Source of the DNA: Squalus acanthias
Lineage: Eukaryota
Reading direction: 5' to 3'
NCBI GenBank assembly: GCA_030390025.1
Contig: CM059448.1
Location: forward strand, 19,654,001 to 19,718,000
DNA length: 64,000 bases
The notes beneath the pieces are model-generated. The model saw only the letters and a program-made list of their open reading frames with translations. It did no database searches and was not told the origin of the DNA. A program made the position numbers and the translations under genes. Position 1 is the first letter of the stretch. Each line of letters starts with the position of its first letter. This document shows, piece by piece, positions 2,944-49,388 of this stretch.

Positions 2944-3695
2944 GGGCTGGATTTTGTCTTGGGGTCGGGTTGGGGTCGTGTAATCTGCATTTCGTGTTTC
3001 CCCCCCGACTCCAGATTAATGTGGGTGCCTGATGCAATTTTCACTTAATTGGGCAATTGAGTTGCAGCATGTGGGAACCCATGACCTAATTAGTGGTTTC
3101 AGTCTGAAACCCGCCTCTGATGATGTCATCATTGCTGACTGCCTGCTCTCAGAGATTGTCTGGCTATTGGTGAGAGAGGACCTGTCTGCATTGCTTCTGA
3201 TGTGAGTGGACCTGAATGCAAATGAGAGAGAGAGAGAGAGAGAGAATCCAAGTCCTCTCACAGCAAAGGCCATGCAGTCTCTGAAGACATTCAATGCAGC
3301 AGCATCAGAGGTGACTTTCACACCTAATAGTACTACTACCTTCATCACATCTCCGTTGTAATAGTGGACTTGCACCCGATAGTCAGCTATCCATAGTGAT
3401 CCCGCCAGGTTTCACTGGAGTGTTTCACACCAGGCGTGCTTCACGTCAGAAAAGGGTTAAACTAGCTGCAACATTTCAAAATGGCATTACAGACCCAATT
3501 TAGGGCTTGTTAAGTGCTTTAATGGCCTCTCCCGCCTCTTGGAGGCGGGACGGAGTCGGGAACCCCGCGACTGATTTTGTCAAAATTGCGTGGAGGCGGG
3601 ATGGAGTCGGAATGGGGTCGGAAACCCCGACCCCGCAAATTTAACCCCCCACACGCCTCCAAACCCGACTCCATGGGTCATTCAAAATCCAGCCT
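2944..3695 (+). mobile_element. Harbinger MITE family A, copy 1
   Basis: TIR gggctggattttg ... caaaatccagcc; colinear with 13546-14305; same TIR as the element at 26659. Confidence 0.85.
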
Positions 3696-11488: not shown

Positions 11489-12502
11489 CTGCTGGTCTTG
11501 GCGATGGATGAGACTTCTGCTGGTCTGGGCGATGGATGAGGCTTCTGCTGGTCTTGGCGATGGATGAGCTCCTGCTGGTCTTGTCGATGGATGAGGCTTC
11601 TGCTGGTCTGGGCGATGGATGAGGCTTCTGCTGGTCTTGGCGATGGATGAGGTTTCTGCTGGTCTTGGCGATGGATGAGGCTTCTGCTGGTCTTGGCGGT
11701 GGATGAGCCCCTGCTGGTCTTGGCGATGGATGAGGTTTCTGCTGGTCTTGGTGATGGATGAGGCTTCTGCTGGTCTTGGCGATGGATGAGGTTTCTGCTG
11801 GTCTTGGCGATGGATGAGGCTTCTGCTGGTCTTGGCGGTGGATGAGGCTTCTGCTGGTCTTAGCGATGGATGAGGCTTCTGCTGGTCTTGGCGGTGGATG
11901 AGCTCCTTCTGGTCATGGCGATGGATGAGGCTTCTGCTGGTCTTGGCGATGGATGAGGCTTCTGCTGGTCTTGGTGATGGATGAGGCGTCTGCTGGTCTT
12001 GGCAGTAGATGAGCTCCTGCTGGTCTTGGCGATGGATGAGCTCCTGCTGGTCTTGGTGATGGATGAGGCTTCTGCTGGTCTTGGCGGTGGATGAGCTCCT
12101 GCTGGTCTTGGTGATGGATGAGGCTTCTGCTGGTCTTGGCGATGGATGAGGCTTCTGCTGGTCTTGGCGATGGATGAGGCTTCTGCTGGTCTTGGTGATG
12201 GATGAGGCGTCTGCTGGTCTTGGCAGTAGATGAGCTTCTGCTGGTCTTGGCGATGGTTGAGGCTCCTGCTGGTCTTGGCGATGGATGAAGCTTCTGCTGG
12301 TCTTGGTGATGGATGAGGCTCCTGCTGGTCTTGGCGATGGTTGAGGCTCCTGCTGGTCTTGGCGGTGAATGAGCTCCTGCTGGTCTTGGCAATGGATGAG
12401 GCTTCTGCTGGTCTTGGCGATGGATGAGGCTCCTGCTGGTCTTGGCGATAGATGAGGCTTCTGCTGGTCTTGGCGGTGAATGAGCTCCTGCTGGTCTTTG
12501 GC
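11489..12502. repeat. Minisatellite, 27-28 bp unit, about 36 copies
   Basis: Unit ctgctggtcttggcgatggatgaggctt with variant ending gagctc. Confidence 0.97.
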
Positions 12503-13545
12503 GAAGCCTCAATAATAAATGCGATTTGGACACATGGGACCCTGATGGAATTTTAACCGGCTCCTGAGCGGGGCACCTCTGTGGCCGCTCCACCAAGTAA
12601 ACCTGTTGGGAAGCGAGTGAAAGTCCGCTAGGGTAAGCTATTAGTGGTCCTGCTCCCCTGCCTTCCCTGCAAACACCCTCCTCTTGGACTGACTTTACCG
12701 ATGCCGTTCTTCATATGAAGAGACTAGGCTGCCCGATTTTTTACCTTCCCCACCGCCCAGCAGCCGTTTTCCTCCAGCTGACAGGTGGGATTCAAATGAG
12801 GCCCAGCCGTTAAAATCCGACTCATACTCCCACATGGGATTGCCATCCGGTCCTGCCATCTTTGACTCAGGAGTTGAAGTCGGACCTTAAGTTTTCCTTT
12901 GTTTAAAAGGTTAAGGTTTGAGTTAATAATCGATTTGAAAAATGATTCTTACTAGCAATGTGGCATCAGTAGCATGCCAAGTGATACCCCTCCCTCCCCC
13001 ATACACAAACACACACACTTTGACAGCAGCAAGGCAATTAGAGTGCATGGGTCTCTGTTGTCTTAACACTGCCTTGCTCATGTTGTGTCTCAGACAGACT
13101 GTCTCACGTATATCCAGAAACTTTGTCTTTCTCTCTTCAGTCATTCCCATTCTGATTTCTTTTTCCTGCTCATTAGTTTTTAACCTTCACAGCTAGACCT
13201 TTGCTAAAGCTGCTTCTCTGACCTCCCCCTCTGTTGCTCCCTGTAAACACACATTCCTGAAGCAAGGAATGTACGTACAGGACCAGCAGATGCTGCCTCG
13301 GGTTGCTTAATAAGAAAGTGTCAATCATTCTAACAAGTATGGGTAGGGGCGGCTACCATTTCAGCTGAGCCAGTTGCCTCCGTCAGCTCCCTGGTAATTC
13401 AAATAAAGTTTTGCTCATGCAGAGGCATCAAGAAAAAGTTTATTTTCTGGCTACATTTTTGGACTGTTAGCAAAAATGAAAGTGCATAAAATAGGAGGCA
13501 ACCTACTGACATGAGTAGGGAATTGGTTCAGAGGTAAGAGACAAA

Positions 13546-14305
13546 GGGCTGGATTTTGATACTGGGGCGGGTTGGGGTTGTGTCATCCGCATTTCGTGTT
13601 ATCCACCTGCCTGCAATTGGATGTGGGAGATTGATGCAATTTTCACTTAATTGGGCAATTGAGTTCCAGCATGTGGGAACCCATGAACCAATTAGTGGTT
13701 TCAGTCTGAAAGTCACCTCTGATGATGTCATCATTGCAGGTCAGAGACTGCCTGGTCTCAGAGATTGTCTGGCCTTTGCTGTGAGAGGACCTGGATGCAA
13801 AATGAGTAGCATCTCACAGAGAGAGAGAGAGAATTTTTTTTGCAACCAAGTCCTCCCAGGCAGTCTCTGAAGACATTCAATGCAGCAGCATCAGAGGCGA
13901 CTTTCAGACCTAATACTACTACTACCTTCATCACAATACTACTACTACCTTCATCACATCTCCGTTGTAATAGTGGACCTGCAGCTGATAGTCAGCTATC
14001 CACTTGTGCTCCCGCCAGGTTTCACTGGCATGTTTCACATCAGGCGTACTTCACGTTGGAAAAGGGTTAAACTAACTAAAATGTTTCAAAATGGCATTAC
14101 AGAGCCAATTTAGGGCTTGTTAAGGGCTTTAATGGCCTCTCCCGCCTCTTGGAGGTGGGACGGAGTCGGGAACCCCGCGACCGATATTGTCAAAATTGCG
14201 TGGAGGCGGAATGGAGTCGGGATGGGGTCGGGACCCCCGAATCTGCAACTTTAACCCCTCACACGCCTCCAAACCCGACTCCACGGGTCATTGAAAATCC
14301 AGCCC
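13546..14305 (+). mobile_element. Harbinger MITE family A, copy 2
   Basis: TIR gggctggatttt/aaaatccagccc, TSD AAA. Confidence 0.92.
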
Positions 14306-15272: not shown

Positions 15273-15600
15273 GGCTTAACAAGCCCTATTGAGGTAAAAT
15301 CACTTGGAGAGTGCGGGCTGGAGCAGGCAGCGGGCTGGGACCGCAACACCGACCCCGGCCGCCCCGGACCCACCTCGGTCGGTAAAATCGCGGCCTTAGG
15401 GTCTGCTCCACCTATCCAGCAGCTTGGCAAGATGGGGGATGGGGGCAGGAAAATCTGCTCCAATGGCCAGAAATGATGGCCGTGATTTCACCGACCGAGG
15501 TGGGTCCGGGCCGGCCGGGGTCGGTGTCGCGGTCCCAGCCCGCTGCCTGCTCCAGCCCGCACTCTCCAAGTGATTTTACCTCAATAAGGCTTGTAAAGCC
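15273..15600. repeat. Inverted repeat, 123-bp arms with 82-bp spacer
   Basis: 15273-15395 is the near-perfect reverse complement of 15478-15600. Confidence 0.95.
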
Positions 15601-17998
15601 CCGCCCTGCGAGGTTCCCGGCCAATTAAAAGGAAGCGGGTCTGATGACGTCATTTGATGACGCGTCATCAGCCGGTTTCCTTAAAGGGGCCATGGCCAAA
15701 TTGATTTTGACAGTTCTGTTGTCAGTGTTCTACAGCATTGAGGTGCTGCAAACACTGACAAGCACTGCACAAAGGTGCACAGCTGCACCCAGGCTCTCCC
15801 ATGACTCCCTCCATATGCTTATGGAGGGAGCCACAGCACGCAGGGAGGTTCTCTTCCCTTCCAATGGGTGGAAGACACCTCCCCAGGAGATCAATGCAGC
15901 CTGGTTGCACATTGCACAGGAGGGCACAAGCAGGGATGTTGTCAGGATGACCTGGCTGCAGTGGCGCAAACCTTTCAATGATCTCAGTAGATCACGAAAT
16001 GTTACTGCAAAGCCACACTCAACCTCATCCTGCTGTGCAGCTCATCACATCCCCATCACTCTGTCTTCCCTACCCTACTCCTGCATATCCTTACTCACAC
16101 CAACTTACCTTGCACCTCCAGCCATCCCTCTCAATCTACATTGGCCCAGAAATTAAACATCGATGGTTGCCGCGGGGGTAAGGATTCCCCGCGATATCGC
16201 ACTTCGGGCCCACACGAACTTCAGTTTGAGGGCCTCTCCCTGTTGCCAGCGTGCAGTGCTTGCGTGTCCCAGAGGCGCAATTAGTTCGTGCGAGCTCTGG
16301 GATCACGTGGGCCAGTTAGAGCCAATGGCAGCACACCATCTTTCATTCATAGTTTTGACAGCAAGGGCTGTCAAAGCTATGAATACAACAAGCCCCCAAA
16401 AGAACAGCTAAACGTCAATTAAATTTTTTTTAAAAGCCATCACATTAATAAAATAACTATAGTTAAATAAATTAACCACTTTAAACAAAAAATTACATTT
16501 TTGAAATTTTTTTAATTCTTTTTAAAAGTTATAAAAATAAACTTACCTTTCTTTAAAGTCTCTAAAAAAGATAAACCTGTTGAAAAAAAATTAAAATAAC
16601 ACTTAATTAACTACTTACCTTGTTAAAAGGGAGTCTTACGCCTGCTTTCTTTATGTGTAAAATCTTCACCACTTACCTGCGCGTTCAAACCTGAAAAAAA
16701 AACTAAGTGCACTGCACGCGGTTCACTTAGGAACCGCCCCCTTCGCCATACACAAAGTGCCGGTTTCCCGCGCATGCGCAGTGCCTGCAGGAAACCGGCA
16801 ATTCGGGACCTAATACGCGAGAGTACACAGTGCGTACTCTCGCGTATTAGGTCTAATTTTCGGGCCATTATCACTTCGCCATTTCACTAGCCACCCCTCA
16901 CACTCACCCTCATCCTACTGCAATCATACCAACTAACAACACACAAGGGTAGGCACTTAGGTGGTTTAGCCAATGTTTATGTGAAGTTTCTGGTAATGTG
17001 CTGTCAATCATTGAAACCTTTATTTTCAGCACTTTGCGTTCTTGGACAGATTTGTGTGCACCTTTGGAAGTGGCTTAGTGAGTTGTAGTGAATGGTGAGA
17101 CATAAGGGTACCCCCCCACCCCGCCCCACCCCGCAATGGTGATGAGTGTGAAAGGAATGGCTTGGGCATTGTAGGGATGCTTTATGGTGTTGGTGTGGGG
17201 TGGTGCCAACCTGGCGCATCATGTGGCATCCAGGGTGTACAGCATCAAGTGAAGTAAATCTGGCCATGATGAGGCCATCCTTGGCCTCCCGGGCAGCAAT
17301 GTGCTGGGGTGCTGATGCCCTGCGTCCTGTGCAGCATCAGTTGATTGCGGAGAAGGCTGGTGTTGTTGTTGTTGCTGCTGGTGTGCCCGGTGATGCTGGT
17401 GTTGGGGCTGATCTTGGTGGGATTCTGAGGACCAAGGTGAGATTTTTTCAAGGGCAATGATGCTGATGGAATAGATGGCAGGCGTGGTTGAGATGACAGA
17501 AGCGATCTGTCAATGGTGAGAGAGGTTGTTCCAATGAGGTGGCACTGGATAGAGAGTTGGCTCCAAACTTGCAAGCTGCAGAAAGCTCAATATGTCTTCC
17601 AAATGCAGTAACCAACAGTTTCTGAGCTTTGAAAGTGAACAGCTGCAACAATGAATCTTTTATACAACTTTGGCAGCTGTCAGGTCATAAGATAATTCAG
17701 TGCTGAATCCACTCATGACATGCTGAGCTGACGTGTTCCCTGAGTAGCGGGTAACCCATGGGGGAGCACGTAAAATTGAAATGTAGGCCTAAAGTAACAG
17801 TTAATTGGATGTTAACAACCCATTTAATGAAGTGAATTGCCTCCCCCGCCGTTTGGTGTCGGGTCTGTTCAGCGCCGACACCTGGGAGACTTGTGGAGAC
17901 GGGTTGACAGCGGATTCCCTACCCGCTGTCAATCTTTGCTATTTTGACAGCGGACCCGCCTCTGAACCTGCCCTCTGAGCGCCAGCAAAATTCAGCCC
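15478..17998 (+). mobile_element. Internally deleted Harbinger retaining Myb exon 1 (+) and transposase ends (-)
   Basis: Myb/SANT motif AAPRLS..RREVLFP..W..IA.E..TWLQWRKPFNDL near 15770-16000; 17245-17310 minus matches the transposase C-terminus at 28380-28433; ends ggccgtgatttc / aaaattcagccc. Confidence 0.85.
16143..16866 (+). mobile_element. Harbinger-type MITE family B nested in the deleted Harbinger
   Basis: TIR ggcccagaaatt / aattttcgggcc, TSD ATT. Confidence 0.9.
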
Positions 17999-21536: not shown

Positions 21537-22425
21537 GGGGGAGAAATTCAGTATCGCCCCATTTGGGGCGCAATTATCGGCCGGGCGCAAAGATTAGCGC
21601 CTGGCGCTAATTATCGCCACCGACTGCAAACTTGACTTTTATCGCCCCTGGAGGTGATTGGCGCGCTAAATCAGGCGCTTCACACCTGTCTTAAGGCGCA
21701 AAGGCCGAGGAGCGAGGCGCTACCTCAGAGCGCTGGCGAAGCTCATGTAATGTCAGTCAACAATGGAACACACACACAATGACACGGGCCAGTTCTTAAA
21801 GGGGATGGTTAATCTTGCTTTCCATCCACATCCTGCTCATTGCAGCCTTGAATCTCGGCCTGGAGAGACCTGCACATCAAATCTGCTGGAAAGATCAATG
21901 GAGAGTACCAGGCAAAGAGCTCAGAGTGCAGCCCCCACAGTCTCTGCTAAATCGATACAAGGAATGGCAAATCAAAATGAACCTGCAAAGTGCTGCTTAG
22001 TACCCAAAACTCCTTCACACAACGTTGAATCTCTCCAGAAGTCTCTCTCTCGCTCAGAATGCGTAGTTCAAAAATGGCACCAACAATAAAAGGCAGGAAG
22101 CGGTCACCTTTAAATAGCGCTCCCCCTTTCCCTTCATGACTGCAGAACGCTCCCCTCAACCTGTCGTTGCTAGCGTCAGGCGGTAAGGCAGGGGGCGCCA
22201 CTCAATATCCGCTCCGGGGCGATACCGGGGCGTTGCACACTCGACTGACGTCACGATCTGCCGGCGCAGGAGATCGTGGCGGTAGTGTTTAGCGCCACCG
22301 CAAAATGTCTAGTTAATTTCGCGAGCGGCGCAAACTTCGCCGCGCCTGGTCGCTAGATGCTTTGCGCCCCATTAGCGCCCTCTTAAGGCGCTAACGGGAG
22401 GCGCAACCAACTGAATTTTTCCCCC
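21537..22425 (+). mobile_element. Harbinger MITE family C, copy 1
   Basis: TIR gggggagaaattcag / ctgaatttttccccc; TSD AAT/TAT; colinear with 34251-35106. Confidence 0.9.
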
Positions 22426-25467: not shown

Positions 25468-26134
25468 GGGCTGGATTTTCATTGACCCGCGGAGGTGGGT
25501 TTGGAGGCGTGTGGGGGGTTAAAATTGCAAAAACTGGCGGGCAGGCACAAGCCCGCCTCCATCCCGCCTCCACGCAATTTTCATTAAATCGTGTCTGCTG
25601 GTCCCGACTCCGTGGCGCCTCTTAGAGGCGGGATAGGCTGTTAAGGCCCTTAACAAGCACTAAATTGCCTCTATAATGCCATTTTGAAAGGCTTTTGTGA
25701 TTTTAACCCTTTTTCTACATGAAGCTAGCCTGTTGTGAACCATGAATGTGAAACCTGGCGGGAGCACATTTGGATAGCTGACGCTGGCTGGCTATTGCGA
25801 TGCATATGTGGATGGATGCATATATGGATGGGGAGGAGACATATCTGGGAGTGGTGGTGTAAAAATATCTGGGAGCAGACTTAGGGCTGCTGCTCATTTT
25901 GCATCCAGGTCCTCTCACAGCAAAGGCCAGGCAGTCTTTGCAGACCTTCAATGCAGCAGCAATGATGACATCATCAGAGGCGACTTTCAGACTTAAAACA
26001 CTAATTGGTTCCTGGGTTCCCACATGCTGGAACTCAATTGCCCAATTAGGTGAAAATTGCATCAATCTCCCACATCCAATTGCAGTCGGGTGGACAACAC
26101 GACCCCAACCCGCCCCAGTATCAAAGTCCAGCCC
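25468..26134 (-). mobile_element. Harbinger MITE family A, copy 3 (no internal fold-back)
   Basis: TIR gggctggatttt / aaagtccagccc, TSD ATT; encodes MSSSPKSAPR from 25897. Confidence 0.9.
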
Positions 26135-27185
26135 ATTAAATCTAAAAGCCTGTTAAAATTTGAAGCACGCAGCCTCATTAGCATATTTAAATAACTGTGC
26201 CGTCCCTTGAGAGCAGGTTAGTCGCTCGGTCCCCACAATCCGCCTCCATTAAAAGCAGAAGTGGGCACGTTTGAAGCAGGTTGGACTCAGGTTTCAGATT
26301 TTTGAAATTTTAGCCTATCCCCTCGACCCTCTCCCGCCCGTTGTGGGGAGTTAAAATTACCCCCGCCCCCCCCACCCATGATTTCAAGCCCCTACTCCTA
26401 TAATATACAAGATAGTCCCAGTGATTATTATAAGTAATACGATGTGGAGAAATACCAGCAGGGATATCAGTCGCATGACATAGAAAAGTGTGAGGTGATA
26501 CATTTTGGTGGGAAGAATGAGGAGAGACAATACATGCTAAATGGTACAATTTTAAAGGGGGTGCAAGAAGAGAGACTCCTGGGGGTGCTTGTGCACAAAT
26601 CTTTAACAAAGCAGTTAATAAACCATATGGGATCCTGGGCTTTATAAATAGAGGCTTTGGGCTGGATTTTGCCAGGCCCAAGGAGGCGGGTTTGAAGGCG
26701 GGTCAGGTGGGAAAGTTGCCAAAAATGGCGTCGGGCTCTGATCCCACCTCCAACCCGCCTCTGCGCAACTTTCCCAAATGCGGGCTTGCAGACCCCGTTT
26801 CGGTCCCGCCTCCAAGAGGCGGGATAGGCCCTTAAGGCACTTAACATCCACTTAAGTACCTTAATAATGCCATTTTGAGAGGCCTTTCAGAGTTTACCAC
26901 ATTTCCCACATGCTGCACGTCTCCCATGGAACAAGCCAGCTAATCCTGTCAGGTTCACAAGTGGATGGCTTAATAACAGCTGCAGCTCCACCATAAAAAC
27001 GGAGTTTTCCACCATGATCATTTGCAGGTGGCAGCACTTTCTTTTCTCAGGTCTTGGAGAACTTTTTGCAGGTCTACTGATTTTGGAAGTGGTGAAGCTG
27101 AGATCCATCTCCACTGTGACCTCCTGGGAAACCCCTCTCCCCACCTTGACTGAGCGCTTCCTCAACTGAGGTATATACCTGCAGC

Positions 27186-28433
27186 ATGGGAACCATTTAT
27201 TTCCTTTCCTCCTGGACCTCAGATTCGAATGAAGACCAGCCGTGGCAGCAGCAGAACCCGGAACAACACTAGCACCAACAGCAGGAGCAACAACAGGAGC
27301 GCCAAGCTGCTGCTCACCCACCTGAAGCTGCACAGGCCAGAAGGCACCAGCGCAGGGAAGGACGTCGCCGCAGGAGATACCCCCAAAACAGGGTTTATAG
27401 ACACAGGGTCAGCTACCTCAACATGACTGAGCAGCAGTGTCAAAGGAGGCTCAGACTTTCGCGAGAGGTAGTGGGTGACATCTGCACAATGCTGCAGCAA
27501 GACCTGGAGCCCAGAGGAGTGGGTGGACACCCCTTACTAGTGGCCGTCAAAGTCACCACCGCACTCAACTTTTTTGCTTCAGGCTCATTCCAGGGATCAA
27601 CAGCAGACATCAGCGGCATCTCCCAGACGGTCGCACACACTTGCATCACACAGGTAACCGATGCCCTCTTTGCCAACGCGCACAATTACATCAACTTCTC
27701 CAGGGATCAAGCAAGTGTAACCGCGCGTGCGGTTGGATTTGCTAATATGGCAGGCTTTCCAAGGGTGCAGGGCATCATTGACTGCACACATGTGGCCCTT
27801 AAGGCATCCCATCACAATCCAGGTATTTTTGTCAACCGCAAGGACTGCCACTCCCTCAACGTGCAGCTGGTGTGTGACCACAAGAAGGAAATTTTGCATG
27901 TTTGCACCAAATACCCTGGCAGTTGCCATGACTCCTTCATCCTGCGCCAGTCTAGTGTGCCTCCGCTTTTCAGTCCGCCAGACCAACTTTGCGAATGGCT
28001 ACTTGGAGACAAGGGCTATCCCCTGAAGACGTGGCTAATGACGCCATTGAGGAGGCCATCCAACGAAGCTGAGGAGCGCTACAACTCCAGCCACATTTCC
28101 ACCAGATCCATTATCGAGCAAACCATCGGCTTGCTGAAGATGCGATTCAGATGCCTTGATAGATCAGGTGGAGCCCTGCAGTACTCAGCAGCCAGGGTCT
28201 CCAGAATCATCGTGGTCTGCTGTGCACTTCACAACATCGTACAGCATCGTGGCTTGCAGCTGCCTGAGGGACAAGTGGGTCAGCGCATAGCCTCCTCAGA
28301 TGAGGAGGAGGAGGAGGAGGAGGAGAGCGAGAACGAAGAGCTTGCGGAGGCGCATCAACCAGCGGCAGCAGCACACAAGAACATTGCTGCCCGGGATGCA
28401 AGGGATGCACTCATCTTGGCCAGATTTGCTTAG
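27186..28433 (+). CDS. Harbinger DDE transposase (HARBI1-like); 415 codons with one TAG at 27270, open from ATG 27423
   Basis: Motifs [45 protein letters not shown]. Confidence 0.93.
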
Positions 28434-28689
28434 GTTGCCCAATCAAACACATTTGGCTCGCACCTTCTTACCACACCATCGACAATGGACAAGAACCTGC
28501 GGCTTCCTATCACTCTGACCACCATCATGACAAATCCAAGTCGCCCTGAGCCCTCAGTGTGGAAGTCCCATTTGCGAAATGACACAGCCCACAACTTCAA
28601 CAGTTTGCCATCAAGTCATTTTATAACATTAATTCACGGATGGCATTTCACAATTAAACACAACAGAACACCCAAGTGACTACCTTTGT

Positions 28690-31593
28690 GACTACTTGTG
28701 CTTTATCTTCCTCTTATGCATGCTCCTACGTGATGCTCCCCTGTGGCTTCAGCAGATGTAGAGGCCCCTTGCTCACTTTCATGCTGCTCCTGCCTCAATA
28801 CCTTTGGCGGGCGTCCTCTGGGGTTGCGAGCCTGTGAGGGCTCGCCGACAGTCTGCTGCTCCTGCGGCTGTGCAGAGGATGAGACACCATCTCAGTTGGG
28901 TGAGGACTCTGGTGGGGCTCTGACCGAGGGCTCCGCAGTGGCATGGAAGTGAGTGCGCTTGGAGAGGAGCCCCCACTTCCTTGTTGTCTGCCACCAACAT
29001 CCCTCTCATGGGTCAGCCCCATTTCAGAGCTAGCAAGTGGCTTGACAGCCCCTTCCTGCACTTCCGGGGGGCCATGAGGACCCGTTTCTGCACTGGCAGT
29101 TGTACTCCAGAGGACTTCCATGAAGCTCTGGTTTCTCTGCTCAATAGCTGCCCATCACTCCTCCAGAGATGTCAGTCTATTCTGAACAATGACCATGTTT
29201 TCAACACTCTGGCAACTTAGCTCCTCCATGGCCATAGCCATCCTCTCCTCTACCATAGCCATCCTTTCCACGGAGGTTGCCATCCTTTCCATGGTGATGT
29301 ATTCATGCGCCAATGCCTCCACAAAGGCTCTGCTCATGTTAGCGATGGACTCCTCCATCCGCTCCACATGCGCAGCGACCCTGGAGACAAAACCTGCCAG
29401 AGACTCCTGCACCTGTTCCTGGAGTTCCAGCACTGCTCTCCTTCTGGATGGACCCGGAGGCACAGGGTCGACATGCAGCTGAGCCGAGCTGGGAGCGTCC
29501 TGCGCCCTCCGACGAGGACTTTCCACTGCTGTTCCTGTCTCCACCATCTGCTGATGCTCACTTGTGAGCTGTGATACACCAGGTGACAACAATACTCTAT
29601 GTCCCGAAGGTCCCACCGAGGTGTGAGTGTCTGCGCTGGTGCTGGGTGCGCTTAATTCTGGTGACGCTGTGCCCTCAGAGGTTGCAGGTTCCTCTGAAGA
29701 GTCTTGTGGCTCAGGCTGTTCCTCCTGGACAGTGGGGAGGGGGGCTGTCGATGGTCCTGTGGGGGAGTAAAGGAAAGAGTTAGACATGTGAGATAAACGT
29801 TGCATGCACATGGAATTGTGCAGCTGATCATAAGTAAATCTGTTAGAGCATCAGAATCAATATCAGTCACTCATGCAATGTCAATGAGAGAGATGAAAAA
29901 CTATTCTGTCACCAGCTTGCTCTGATGCACCCATCTGTCTGTCCCCCACTTGTGCATCCTCCTCAGCTCCCACGATCTCAAGGGACACCTCCTCTGCGTT
30001 GCTGAGCTGGGCTCAAGTTTGCAGATGACACAAAACTGGGTGGGCATGTGTGCTGTGAGGAGGATGCCGAGAAACTCCTGATTTGGACAGGTTGGGTGAG
30101 TGGGCAGAAGCATGGCAGATGCAATAGAATGTGGATAAATGCGAGGTTATCCACTTTGTTGTCAAAAACAGAAAGGCAGACTATTATCTGAATGGCAATA
30201 GATTGGGAGAAGGGGAAGTGCAACGAGACCTGGGTGTCCTTGTGCACCAGTCGCTGAAGGTAAGCATGCAGGTGCAGCAGGCGGTGAAGAAGGCAAATGG
30301 TATGTTGGCCTTCATAGCGAAAGGGTTTGAGTATAGGAACAGGGATGTCCTGCTGCAGTTGTACAGGGCCTTGGTGAGACCACACCTTGAGTATTGTGTG
30401 CAGTTTTGGTCACCTTATCTGAGGAAGGATGTTCTTGCCATGGAAGGAGTTCAGCGAAGATTCACAAGGCTGATACCTGGGATGGCAGGAATGACATATG
30501 AGGAGAGATTGGGTCGATTGGGCTTATACTCGCTGGAGTATAGAAGAATGAGAGGGGATCTCATCGAAACATATAAAATTCTGACAGGTCTGGACAAACT
30601 AGATGCAGGAAGAATGTTCCCGATGGTCGGAGAGTCCAGAACCAGGGGTCATAATCTAAGGATAAGGGGTAAGCCATTTAGGACAGAAATGAGGAGGAAT
30701 TTCTTCACCCAGAGAGTGGTGAACCTGTGGAATTCTCTACCACAGAAGGTAGTTGAGGCCAATTCATTAAATATATTCAAGAATGAGTTAGATATATTTC
30801 TTAAAGCTAAAGGTATCAAGGGATATTGGGAGAAGGCAGGTACAGGGTACTGAGTTTGGATGATCAGCCATGATCTCATCGAATGGCGGAGCAGGCTCGA
30901 GGGGCCGAATGGCCTACTCCTGCTCCTATCTTCTATGTTTCTATGTTTCTATGTGGGCTATTGAGGGTGGCCCTCCTCCTGTCTTTGCCCTTTCCATCTT
31001 ATTGTGGGCTCTCTTTTCCTGCAATGAGGGAGACAAGTGGAGTTTGAGTGAGAATGAAGGAGTGAGTGTAGAGAATCCATAGCATATATGCTTAGAAGGA
31101 CACAAAGATGGAGTGAGGTCCCAAGACCAAGGGCCCTCCCTGTGTGTTGTAAGTTGTTGTCATAGCATAACAGCGATAGGGAGTGAGGGCTGCATAATTG
31201 AATAGTTAAGTGAATGTGTACACACAGAGAGAGGGAATGGTTAAGGGTGCAGGGATGTAAGGGTCAAGTGGGATGTGGAGGAGGAGGTTGACAATGCAGA
31301 GTGCTGGCCATGAGAGGCGATGGGGAACAGATCGAGGATCATGGTGATGTCATACTCACTTTTCCTGTGCGGAGAAGGTCATTAAACCTCTTTCTGCACT
31401 GCAGCCAGGTTCTGCTGCACATTGAGATGGCACTGACCTCCTGTGCCACTTGCAGCCACACAGCTTTGGTCTGCTGGGGAGGTTTCTTCCTCCCAGAGGA
31501 AGGAAACAACACCTCTTTCTGAGCTCTGGCTCCCTCCACTTGGAGGGAGTCCTCATCAAAGCGGGGTGCAGCCTTGGACCTTGAGCTTGACAT
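28690..31593 (-). pseudogene. Harbinger Myb/SANT-like DNA-binding gene: exons 31593-31360, 31018-29913 (split by CR1), 29756 to about 28690
   Basis: MSSSRSKAAPRF..EVLFP..W..VAQEV..RTWLQCRKRFNDL | EKRAHNKMERAKTGGGPP..; GT/AG sites in phase; TGA at 29155 and distal frameshifts. Confidence 0.88.
30014..30953 (+). mobile_element. CR1 LINE 3' part inserted in Myb exon 2
   Basis: ORF 30131-30853; tail (ttctatgt)n; TSD TGGGCT at 30008-30013 and 30954-30959. Confidence 0.95.
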
Positions 31594-32569
31594 CTGTGCA
31601 CCACCAATCCCTCAGAAGTGTCTCAAAAAAAAGTTGTAAGGCAGAAAATGAACTAAGGCTGCTTGCAGGCCTTAAATGCAGCTCCATAAATGACGTCATC
31701 AGAGGTGAGTTTCACGACCAAAAGACTCATTGGGGCAGGGGTTCCCACACGCTGGGAATCAAGTGCTCAATTAGGACAAAATCACCAAATTATCCCGCCT
31801 CACATCGGAGGCGGAGGCGGGACCCACCGACCACCTGACCCGCCCCCAACCTGCCCCCATGACAAAATCCAGCCCATAGAGTGCAAAAGTCAGTTATACT
31901 AAACCTATATAAAACACTAGTTGGGCCCCAGCTGGAGTATTGTGTCCAATTCTGGGCACCGCACTTTAGGAAGGATGTGAAGACATTGGCCGGGTACGGA
32001 AGAGATTTACTAGAATGGTTCCAGGGATGAGGGATTACAGTTACATGGATAGACTGGAGAAGCTGGGGTTGTTCTCCTTGGAGCAGAGAAGGCTAAGAGG
32101 AGATTTGATAGAGGTGTTTAAAATCATGAAGGGTTTAGATAGAGTAAATAAAGAGAAACTGTTCCAATGGCTGAAGGGTCGATACCCAGAGGGCACAGAT
32201 TTAAGGTGATTGGCAAAAGAACCAGAGGCGACATGAGGAAAAACTTTTTTATGCAACGAGTGGTTAGGATTTGGAACGCACTGCCTGATAGGGTGGTGGA
32301 TACAGATTCAATAGTAGCCTTCGAAAGGGAATTGGATAAATACTTGAAGGAGGAAAAATTACAGGGATATGGGGAAAGAGCGGGAGAGTGGGACTAACTG
32401 GATTGGTCTTTGAAAGAGCCGGAGCAGACGCGTTGGGCCGAAAGGCCTCCTTCTGTGCTGTATTATTCTATGATTCTATGACAGTGTGATATCATTATGA
32501 GACTTCTGATGATTTGCTTAGGTTATTAAAGTGACTGGCAAGATTATAAAAATCATGTCATGTCACCTG

Positions 32570-34237: not shown

Positions 34238-35890
34238 TGTAAGAAACATGGGAGGAGAAATTCGGTATCGCCCTGTTTGGGGCACAATTATCGGCCGGGC
34301 ACAAAGTTTAGCGTCTGGCGCTAATTATCGCCTCCGACTGTAAACGTGGCTTCTATCACCTCTCTTAAGGCGCTAACGCCGAGGAGCGAGGCGCTAACTC
34401 AGAGCGCTGGCAAAACTCATGTGATGTCAGTCAGCAATGGAACACAGACACACTGGCACCGGCCAGTTCTTAAAGGGGAGTTTCGATCTTGCTCTCCTCC
34501 CACACCCTGCTCATTGCAGCCTTGAATCTTGGCCTGGAGAGACCTGTACATCAATTCTGCTGGAAAGAACAATGGAGAGTCCCAGGGAAAGAGCTCAGAA
34601 TGCAGCCCCCAAAGTCTCTTCTAAATCGATGCAAGGAAGGTCAAATCAAAATGAACCTGCAAAGTGCTGCTCAGTACCCAAAACTCCTTCACACAGCGTT
34701 GAATCTCTCCAGAAGTCTCTCTCTCTCGCTCTCTCAGAATGTGTGGTGCGAAAATGCCGGCAACAAAAAAAGTCAGGAAGCGGCCGCCTTTAAATAGCGC
34801 TCCCCGAGTCCCTTCCCGGCTTCAAAACGTTCCCCTCAACCTGTCGTTGCTAGTGACAGGCGGTAAGGCAGGGGGCGCCACTCAATATCTGGTCTGGGAC
34901 GCTACCGGGGCGTTGCACGCTCGACTGACGTCACGATCTGCGGGCACAGGAGATTGTGGCGTTAGTGTTTAGCGCCGCCGCAAAATGTCTGGTCAATTTT
35001 GCGAGCAGCGCAAACATCGTCGCGCCCGGGCGCGACTTGCTTTGCGCCCCATTAGCGCCCTCTTAGGGCACTAACAGGAGGCGCAAAGCAACCGAATTTT
35101 TCTCCCATGTAATCCTAAAGAAAGTTGTAAGTTATAAGGTACTTAATGATTCCGTAGGAAATAGATCTGCGAACCCACTGACTTATTGCCCAGAATTAAT
35201 TCCAAACACATCAGATAAGAACAGAGAGAGGCGGCCTCCCAAAGAGACATAGCAAGTTTGATAAGGGAGACAGGGAACCAGTCAGCCGAATAAGCAAAAC
35301 ACTCTTAACCATACTAAAACATCTTAACACAAAAAGATAAGAAATAACTGAACTCCAGCTCGAAGAATAAGATGGTCAGGAAGTACTTTGCCCTGGTAAT
35401 AAAAGTCATGAGATGGACGAAAAATGATAGACATCTGTGATCCCAATCCATCGAAATAAGATATAAAAACAGGGCAGAGAGAGAGAGAAGTTAGCCGTTA
35501 GGAGGAAAGGCTTCCTCGGAGTGGATGAAATACTCGCTTCGGCTTAACTCTCTGATCAGGCTGGACCCCAGAGGTGCTGGCTGACGGCCTAACAGCACAG
35601 ACAGCTCAAGGAGAGACCCAACAGAAGTGACCGGTGTTGCAGACAGAGACATCCATCAACACTCATCGACGTCCGTCCGTCCGACGTCCGTCTGATCATC
35701 TCGTTCTGTTCGTTCCATCGCGGGGCCGTAGGTCGTTCTCATCTGTCACGGGTTGTCTGTCTACTGTATCTATTTCAATTGCATGAAGTAGCATCTGATT
35801 ATGCTTAAACTGTAGCTCTCTAATAAAAAGCCTTACAACTCCTAAGACCCTTTGGGTAATGTGTGTGTGACCTGTGATCCAAATCTTACA
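34238..35890 (+). mobile_element. Solo LTR (about 794 bp without the nested MITE)
   Basis: TGTAAGA...TCTTACA ends, 4-bp TSD CAGT, TATA-like tataaaa at 35462, AATAAA at 35822. Confidence 0.8.
34251..35106 (+). mobile_element. Harbinger MITE family C, copy 2
   Basis: TIR ggaggagaaattcgg / ccgaatttttctccc, TSD ATG. Confidence 0.9.
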
Positions 35891-48684: not shown

Positions 48685-49388
48685 ACCCAGACTTCTCGCC
48701 CCCACCCCAGACTTCTCCCCCCCACCCCAGACTACTCCCCCCCCACCCCAGACTTCTCCCCCTCACCCCAGACTTCTCCCCCCCCACCCCAGACTTCTCC
48801 CCCCACCCAGACTTCTCCCCCCACCCAGACTTCTCCCCCCACCCAGACTTCTCCCCCCCACCCAGACTTCTCCCCCCACCCCAGACTACTCCCCCCCCAC
48901 CCCAGACTACTCCCCCCCCCACCCCAGACTTCTCACCCCCCCACCCCAGACTTCTCCCCCCCCACCCCAGACTTCTCTCCCCCCCACCCCAGACTTCTCC
49001 CCCCCACTCCAGACTTCTCCCCCCCACCCCAGACTTCTCCCCCCCCCCACCCCAGACTTCTCCCCCCCCACCCCAGACTTCTCCCCCCCCACCCCAGACT
49101 TCTCCCCCCCCACCCCAGACTTCTTCCCTCACCCCAGACTTCTCCCCCCCACCCCAGACTTCTCCCCCCCCACCCCAGACTTCTCCCCCCCCACCCCAGA
49201 CTTCTCCCCCCCACCCCAGACTTCTCCCCCTCACCCCAGACTTCTCCCCCCCCCAGACTACTCCCCTCACCCCAGACTTCTCCCCTCACCCCAGACTTCT
49301 CCCCCCCCACCCCAGACTTCTCCCCCACCCCAGACTTCTCCCTCCACCCCAGACTTCTCCCCCCACCCCAGACTTCTCCCCCCACCCC
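48685..49388. repeat. C-rich minisatellite, about 20-22 bp unit
   Basis: (ccccagacttctccccccca)n with variable C runs. Confidence 0.97.

Follow-up and report, generated by a model that had tools for sequence, protein, structure and literature searches.

An internal inverted duplication in a Harbinger MITE family of Squalus acanthias: likely snap-back origin and decay

Family-A copies and a sister Harbinger element in the window

Our analysis covered 64,000 nucleotides of Squalus acanthias DNA (assembly GCA_030390025.1, contig CM059448.1, forward-strand positions 19,654,001 to 19,718,000), hereafter the window, which contain three copies of a transposon family, family A, and what is likely one full-length Harbinger of a sister family, family B (Table 1). 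PIF/Harbinger elements are described as having short TIRs, a 3-bp TSD and, in vertebrates, a preference for a 15-bp palindromic target (PMC2836001). Family A is a non-coding, high-copy PIF/Harbinger MITE, with short TIRs, Harbinger-derived ends, a 3-bp TSD, perfectly repeated in 99 of the 153 distinct flanks (shuffled mean 10.4, maximum 19/165), and an extended palindromic target site (A at −5 and T at +5, each 0.88; C at −2, 0.65, and G at +2, 0.73). It is like the mPing and Harbinger3N_DR MITEs, as these are described in PMC2836001, in its TIRs, TSD, palindromic target, Myb/DDE-derived ends and thousands of copies, but mPing-type MITEs are quoted there at 100-500 bp, whereas family A measures ~750 bp and has a hypervariable interior and an internal fold-back of ~97 bp. 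Internal palindromic repeats are described too for Harbinger-N12A_XT of Xenopus tropicalis, another Harbinger MITE of a vertebrate (PMC12676858).

Table 1. Positions of family-A and family-B features in the window.
Feature	Position	Strand	Remarks
Copy 1, more eroded hairpin subfamily	2944..3695	+	Arms ~3102-3222 / 3246-3323; no exact TSD
Copy 2, family-A hairpin MITE, 760 bp	13546..14305	+	12-bp TIRs GGGCTGGATTTT at both ends; TSD AAA
Copy 2 left end	13546..13703	+	Homologous to Myb-side end of Myb-coding Harbingers; CCAAT 13688-13692
Copy 2 left arm	13704..13803	+	CRE-like TGATGTCA 13723-13730; TATA-like box deleted
Copy 2 loop	13804..13832	+	First Myb codons (remnant) and (GA)n filler
Copy 2 right (inverted) arm	13833..13909	-	Begins at inherited T-run; mutated TATA-like box 13882-13874 retained
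Copy 2 junction filler, 23-bp tandem duplication	13912..13958	+	
Copy 2 right end	13960..14305	-	Homologous to transposase-side end of full-length elements; ends well short of transposase start
Copy 3, non-hairpin sister	25468..26134	-	One arm only (25991-25895), then ATG-MSSSPKSAPR; patchwork junction; TSD 3 bp, exact
Family-B Harbinger, likely one full-length element	26659..31875	-	LINE-like insert near 30080-30950; flanks without exact TSD
Family-B DDE_Tnp_4 transposase frame, 386 aa	27273-28433	+	
Family-B Myb exon 1	31593-31360	-	Frame from 31593 reads MSSSRSKAAPRF; Pfam PF13873, E 2.3e-08

The three copies belong to three different subfamilies, each multi-copy in the genome: all 40 scored matches of copy 1, of copy 2 and of the copy 3 left end showed 90-100%, 93-100% and 95-100% identity, respectively, and copies 1 and 2 are 81% identical to each other. 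Over its first 190 nt, the left end of copy 2 is ~72% identical to family B and 80-81% to a Myb-coding family, family D, while its right end is ~70% identical to family B and 77% to the family-D element L341 across 330 nt. The left arm of copy 2 contains a 13-nt direct duplication, a shortened Myb leader and a remnant ATG (13802-13804); its right arm lacks 12 nt that include the CRE, and another 13 nt. The S-P-K codon remnant is retained in 4 of 46 hairpin copies.

Folding against 200 shuffles confirmed the imperfect internal inverted duplication around (GA)n that the initial annotation had described in copies 1 and 2. The copy 2 segment 13704-13909, with arms around the (GA)n and a T8 run, has an MFE of −100.2 kcal/mol (z −7.45) and the copy 1 segment 3102-3323 one of −84.1 kcal/mol (z −3.31), and no shuffle was as stable in either case. 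Copy 3 indeed has a single arm, on the minus strand, that runs into ATG-MSSSPKSAPR. Genome-wide, an inverted-arm 21-mer has at least 5,905 exact matches and a family left-end 21-mer at least 12,674, both counts being lower bounds that include exact 21-mer matches only; the former bears out the earlier proposal that the hairpin transposed after it had formed. Among 30 position-sampled family-A left ends, 13 belonged to hairpin copies, one to a remnant and 16 to copies without an inverted arm, and none continued into a Myb domain. The longest unbroken helix is 14 bp in copy 2 and 10 bp in copy 1; it reaches 39-45 bp in 3 of 28 sampled copies and at least 25 bp in 7 of 28, and an outer stem of 20-21 bp is intact in most.

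Parentage and content of the duplicated segment

Full-length family-B elements of ~4.3 kb carry a Myb gene (PF13873) reading inward from the left and a DDE_Tnp_4 transposase gene (PF13359) reading inward from the right, on opposite strands. The Myb gene at 31593 had been taken as the source of the arm. The Myb frame at this position is real (PF13873), but it belongs to family B and was rejected as the parent, because the family-B leader and the arm do not match; the left ends of families A and B are 72-78% alike. The closest Myb-coding parent that we found is family D (L341 and L342). L341, a 3,303-bp element with an exact TSD, reads the Myb start MSSSRPKSAPRFD downstream of a leader homologous to the arm, which upholds the derivation of the duplicated segment from the 5' end of a Myb gene; it is 88-90% identical to the ends of A0, a progenitor MITE of ~740 bp with an intact TATA-like box and longer leaders, and 75-81% identical to hairpin ends. 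L341 lacks a long transposase frame, and none of the family-D elements found is intact. Two genome pattern searches for an element that combines a Myb gene with the family-A leader returned only five MITEs and no matches, respectively, and those of 41 transposase-side loci that have a left end belong to families with the common promoter core and a different leader. Shortened Myb-coding derivatives recur in family C, at ~1.75 kb and ~3.2 kb, with Myb exon 1 kept and the interior reduced (L301-L340).

The arm had been described as the Myb 5' UTR. It does come from the Myb 5' region, but about two thirds of its 97 bp correspond to a predicted core promoter with CRE-like and TATA-like elements. 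The arm begins between the CCAAT and the CRE, ~67 nt upstream of the predicted start. In a sample of 97 Myb-bearing left ends from the genome, CCAAT is present in 91 and the CRE or a CpG-decayed form of it in 86. Most have a TATA-like ATTTAAG followed ~29 nt on by a pyrimidine-rich, initiator-like stretch, a count for the TATA-like box that is partly circular because these left ends were chosen with a fuzzy motif that includes it. The promoter and its start sites are predictions from motif knowledge and not mapped starts.

The predicted initiator was lost before the fold-back formed, since A0 and its descendants lack 19 nt that contain it, and the TATA-like box was lost from the left arms. In 30 position-sampled hairpins, the left-arm TATA-like box is deleted in 17, further changed in 11, present in a mutated form in two and in its parental form in none; copies 1 and 2 both lack it. 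In both arms, the TATA-like element traces to the later, mutated form, and the fold-back is therefore younger than the decay of the promoter.

Origin and decay of the fold-back

The inverted duplication of this Harbinger MITE probably arose once, by snap-back synthesis, and is probably now a decaying passenger with no function. The starting element would have been a MITE that postdates A0, with a changed TATA-like box and, as in many such copies, a quasi-palindrome TGCAAAAT...ATTTTTGCA around the Myb start. During repair of an excision gap or at a replication stall, the new strand may have folded back on this quasi-palindrome, copied ~97 nt in reverse and rejoined the right end. Transposase supplied in trans would then have amplified the fold-back MITE to thousands of copies, while indels would erode its arms and rare template switches would re-copy one arm from the other.

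Several features of the junction point to this route. Of 41 non-hairpin sisters, 19 have a T-run followed by GCA opposite TGCAAAAT across the Myb start. Two of these form a small hairpin when folded as DNA (−8.3 kcal/mol). The inverted arm begins exactly at the T-run of the quasi-palindrome and has retained the longer T-run: 46 hairpin copies were examined, and of the 31 that were measurable, 24 have a right-arm T-run 7-9 long, whereas the A-run of the left (template) arm is 4 in 32 of 37. A right-arm T-run longer than the template A-run is what snap-back priming predicts, as described for snap-back SD-MMEJ, which provides a precedent for such priming (PMC5728401). The process may have been gap repair or a replication template switch. 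A copy of ~97 nt may be long for SD-MMEJ, and replication template switching may fit better. A single origin is suggested because the return junction and the 12-nt deletion are common to the hairpins; one hairpin subclade nests among non-hairpin ends, in a part of the tree that is poorly resolved.

The interiors of the non-hairpin sisters differ from copy to copy and their ends are 95-98% alike. Two of them (L181 and L183) have the arm segment duplicated in direct orientation next to the (GA)n. In the sisters L061-L090, whose left ends are 95-98% identical, the interiors are near copy-unique and consist of short templated repeats, which suggests repeated rebuilding of the centre. A different MITE family in the window (21683-22341 and 34357-35021) has inward-facing promoter-like motifs and a central (TC)n, and simple-repeat fillers therefore recur at MITE junctions. 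The window also contains a 123-nt, 95% inverted repeat of the left end of another Harbinger family, placed back to back 82 nt apart (15273-15395 / 15478-15600), ahead of a CCAAT-CRE-TATA-like promoter and a broken Myb exon at ~15770-15990; it may be a product of local re-insertion or of alternative transposition.

A precedent for such a duplication is the Goblin MITE of Aedes aegypti, whose inversely duplicated subterminal sequence is attributed to abortive gap repair, template switching and microhomology (PMC3814204). Goblin is like family A as a MITE with an inverted duplication and offers a precedent for template switching in gap repair, but it is a Tc1/mariner element that descends directly from the autonomous element and whose duplication lengthens the TIRs (PMC3814204), whereas the duplication of family A is internal and arose in a MITE that had already decayed.

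We followed the decay of the arms on a tree built from the ends only, with the arms left out, and rooted on A0 (a mis-extracted row, L095, was excluded from the copy-1 distance summary). Stems are longest near the base of the tree and shortest in the clades of copies 2 and 1, and the longest helix falls with tree depth (rho −0.62, n=30, p 0.0003, a value that overstates the trend because the tips of a tree are non-independent). Indels affect the left arm of 28 of 30 hairpin copies, compared to 4 of 11 non-hairpin copies. The subfamily-level arm changes in copies 1 and 2, read by eye, are uncompensated. An RNA structure under selection was rejected as an explanation, since no compensatory subfamily change was seen and the three copies compared to Rfam (L208, L001 and L091) gave no match at the gathering score.

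Some stems have nevertheless been restored. A targeted pattern search found 18 copies in which the 12-nt deletion is partly or wholly restored, and 6 of the 16 examined have near-perfect stems of 80-95 pairs with the deletion fully restored. These near-perfect hairpins were rejected as pure ancestors, because L201, L207 and L208 keep a derived right-arm base despite the restored deletion (L207 and L208 may be a single duplicated locus) and because L196 and L206 reproduce, in mirror image, a deletion that is derived in the left arm; L201 also mirrors a private substitution, as judged by eye. Arm-to-arm copying in family A thus consists of rare events and is not a lineage-wide compensation. Two further rearrangements were seen: in L203 an in-place inversion affects the hairpin region and reversed left-end sequence comes after it, likely a flip mediated by the inverted repeat, and L162, which is the L132 locus, contains a minisatellite of ~600 bp that grew from a 17-nt left-arm unit within a hairpin MITE. 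Other minisatellites lie in the window at 11489-12504 (28-bp period) and 48686-49388 (21-bp period).

Parent, progenitor MITE, snap-back primer, near-perfect hairpins, eroded descendants and arm-to-arm conversions are all found in one genome, and family A is a well-resolved natural record of the rebuilding of a MITE interior and a useful dataset for template-switch mutation.

Possible effects of the fold-back

It is conceivable, if unlikely, that the fold-back is an incidental source of dsRNA, with long-stem copies in introns or UTRs being read through from the host or from a bottom-strand, transposase-side promoter to give small RNAs or ADAR substrates, mainly against family-A MITEs and weakly against Myb promoter cores. 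Template-switch hairpins in introns are reported to feed miRNA birth (bioRxiv 2023.04.19.537475), and the minority of copies with unbroken helices (at least 39 bp in 3/28, at least 25 bp in 7/28) would be suitable substrates; the copies in the window, however, reach only 14 and 10 bp. The right end retains the transposase-side upstream region, oriented toward the hairpin, but its leader is truncated right after the TATA-like motif. Promoter-half 21-mers of the arm lie 1-2 mismatches from Myb-coding elements. The copies compared to Rfam had no match. Contigs of four sequencing runs, not recorded as RNA, cover copy 2 and a family-B element from many repeat copies; depth is zero over the unique left flank and none of the joints shown is a clean intron, a pattern that speaks neither for nor against transcription. 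No host gene was identified among the 18 of 75 long ORFs of the window that were scanned. Such dsRNA would in any case be compatible with a snap-back origin, to which it adds only a side effect.

We consider it quite improbable that the fold-back acts as a mobile dsRNA template against the Myb core promoter shared by several Harbinger families. Read-through of several hundred long-stem copies from host genes would then feed small-RNA silencing of the helpers on which the MITE depends. Element-level selection would favour subfamilies with a broken stem, which would explain the stepwise erosion, and family A would be a self-limiting killer MITE on its way out of its own silencing. Should small RNAs from the long-stem copies prove real, they would make family A a testable case of a mobile element that seeds the silencing of its own helpers.

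The initial annotation had proposed a mobile silencer like maize Mu killer, in which transcription of the hairpin from the Myb promoter would yield small RNAs that silence the parent via the Myb 5' UTR. Mu killer is described as a single locus with mudrA sequence of ~1.3 kb in inverted form, a pair of like termini, transcripts and dominant silencing, and the hairpin read-through model of Mu killer itself has been questioned (PMC3440606). Like family A, both Mu killer and the composite insertions that silence Ac/Ds (bioRxiv 2020.01.07.897926) carry the 5' portion of a DNA-transposon gene as an inverted duplication. The family-A arm is homologous to the promoter, leader and ATG of its parent. 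Position-sampled family-B copies appear older (nearest-neighbour distance 5.3% against 3.2% for position-sampled hairpins, from pools that differ in size), and the failure to find a Myb-coding element with the family-A leader (no matches, and 0/30 left ends) would be expected if the direct parent were extinct. Against this, a Myb-promoter transcript would start ~67 nt into the 97-nt arm, judging from a start 29 nt after the TATA-like box, and would leave ~30 nt for pairing; the segment with the initiator is missing and the TATA-like box lost; and the continued appearance of new subfamilies in the lineage would have required helpers that were not silenced.

We compared the arms of copies 1, 2 and 3 and of the near-perfect hairpin L208 to the sample of 97 Myb-bearing left ends, which includes the closest parent (~80% identical). 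In the sequence 3' of the predicted start, no arm 21-mer matched within 3 mismatches, the minimum being 4-5, and the close matches to Myb-coding elements (1-2 mismatches) all lay within the promoter. In its leader half, the arm differs from all left ends of the sample by at least 4-5 mismatches per 21-mer, which falls short of the identity to an autonomous Myb leader that the earlier proposal needed. Slicing of Myb mRNA is implausible for the sampled families because the arm 21-mers miss the predicted transcribed part, and promoter-directed silencing would require nascent read-through RNA. Family A has an inverted duplication of transposon sequence, but where a silencer of the Mu killer type would have a long, transcribed duplication near-identical to its target and two termini of the same kind with the other absent, family A has 97 bp that are mostly predicted promoter, ~20% diverged from the parent, and both a left and a right end. 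Family A resembles Mu killer in shape only and gives no evidence of a Mu killer in vertebrates; as an explanation of the sampled families, a Mu-killer-like silencer is largely refuted and we regard it as very unlikely. The literature searched, with subscription papers and Repbase outside its coverage, held no description that we could find of family A or of a vertebrate killer MITE.

Finally, the preferred reading of a functionless passenger has to accommodate the abundance of the fold-back lineage (13 of 30 left ends), and an advantage to the element may exist. It is, on the other hand, highly improbable that the DNA fold-back itself helps the element, through restoration in gap repair or by bringing the ends together, and is maintained by element-level selection: high copy number and the retained outer stem would fit such a role, but non-hairpin sisters are at least as common (16/30) and of similar age (nearest-neighbour distance 2.8% against 3.2% for hairpins in position-sampled copies, a weak form of dating in which pools are of unequal size and top-match sets are biased young), and the later subfamilies have the weakest stems.
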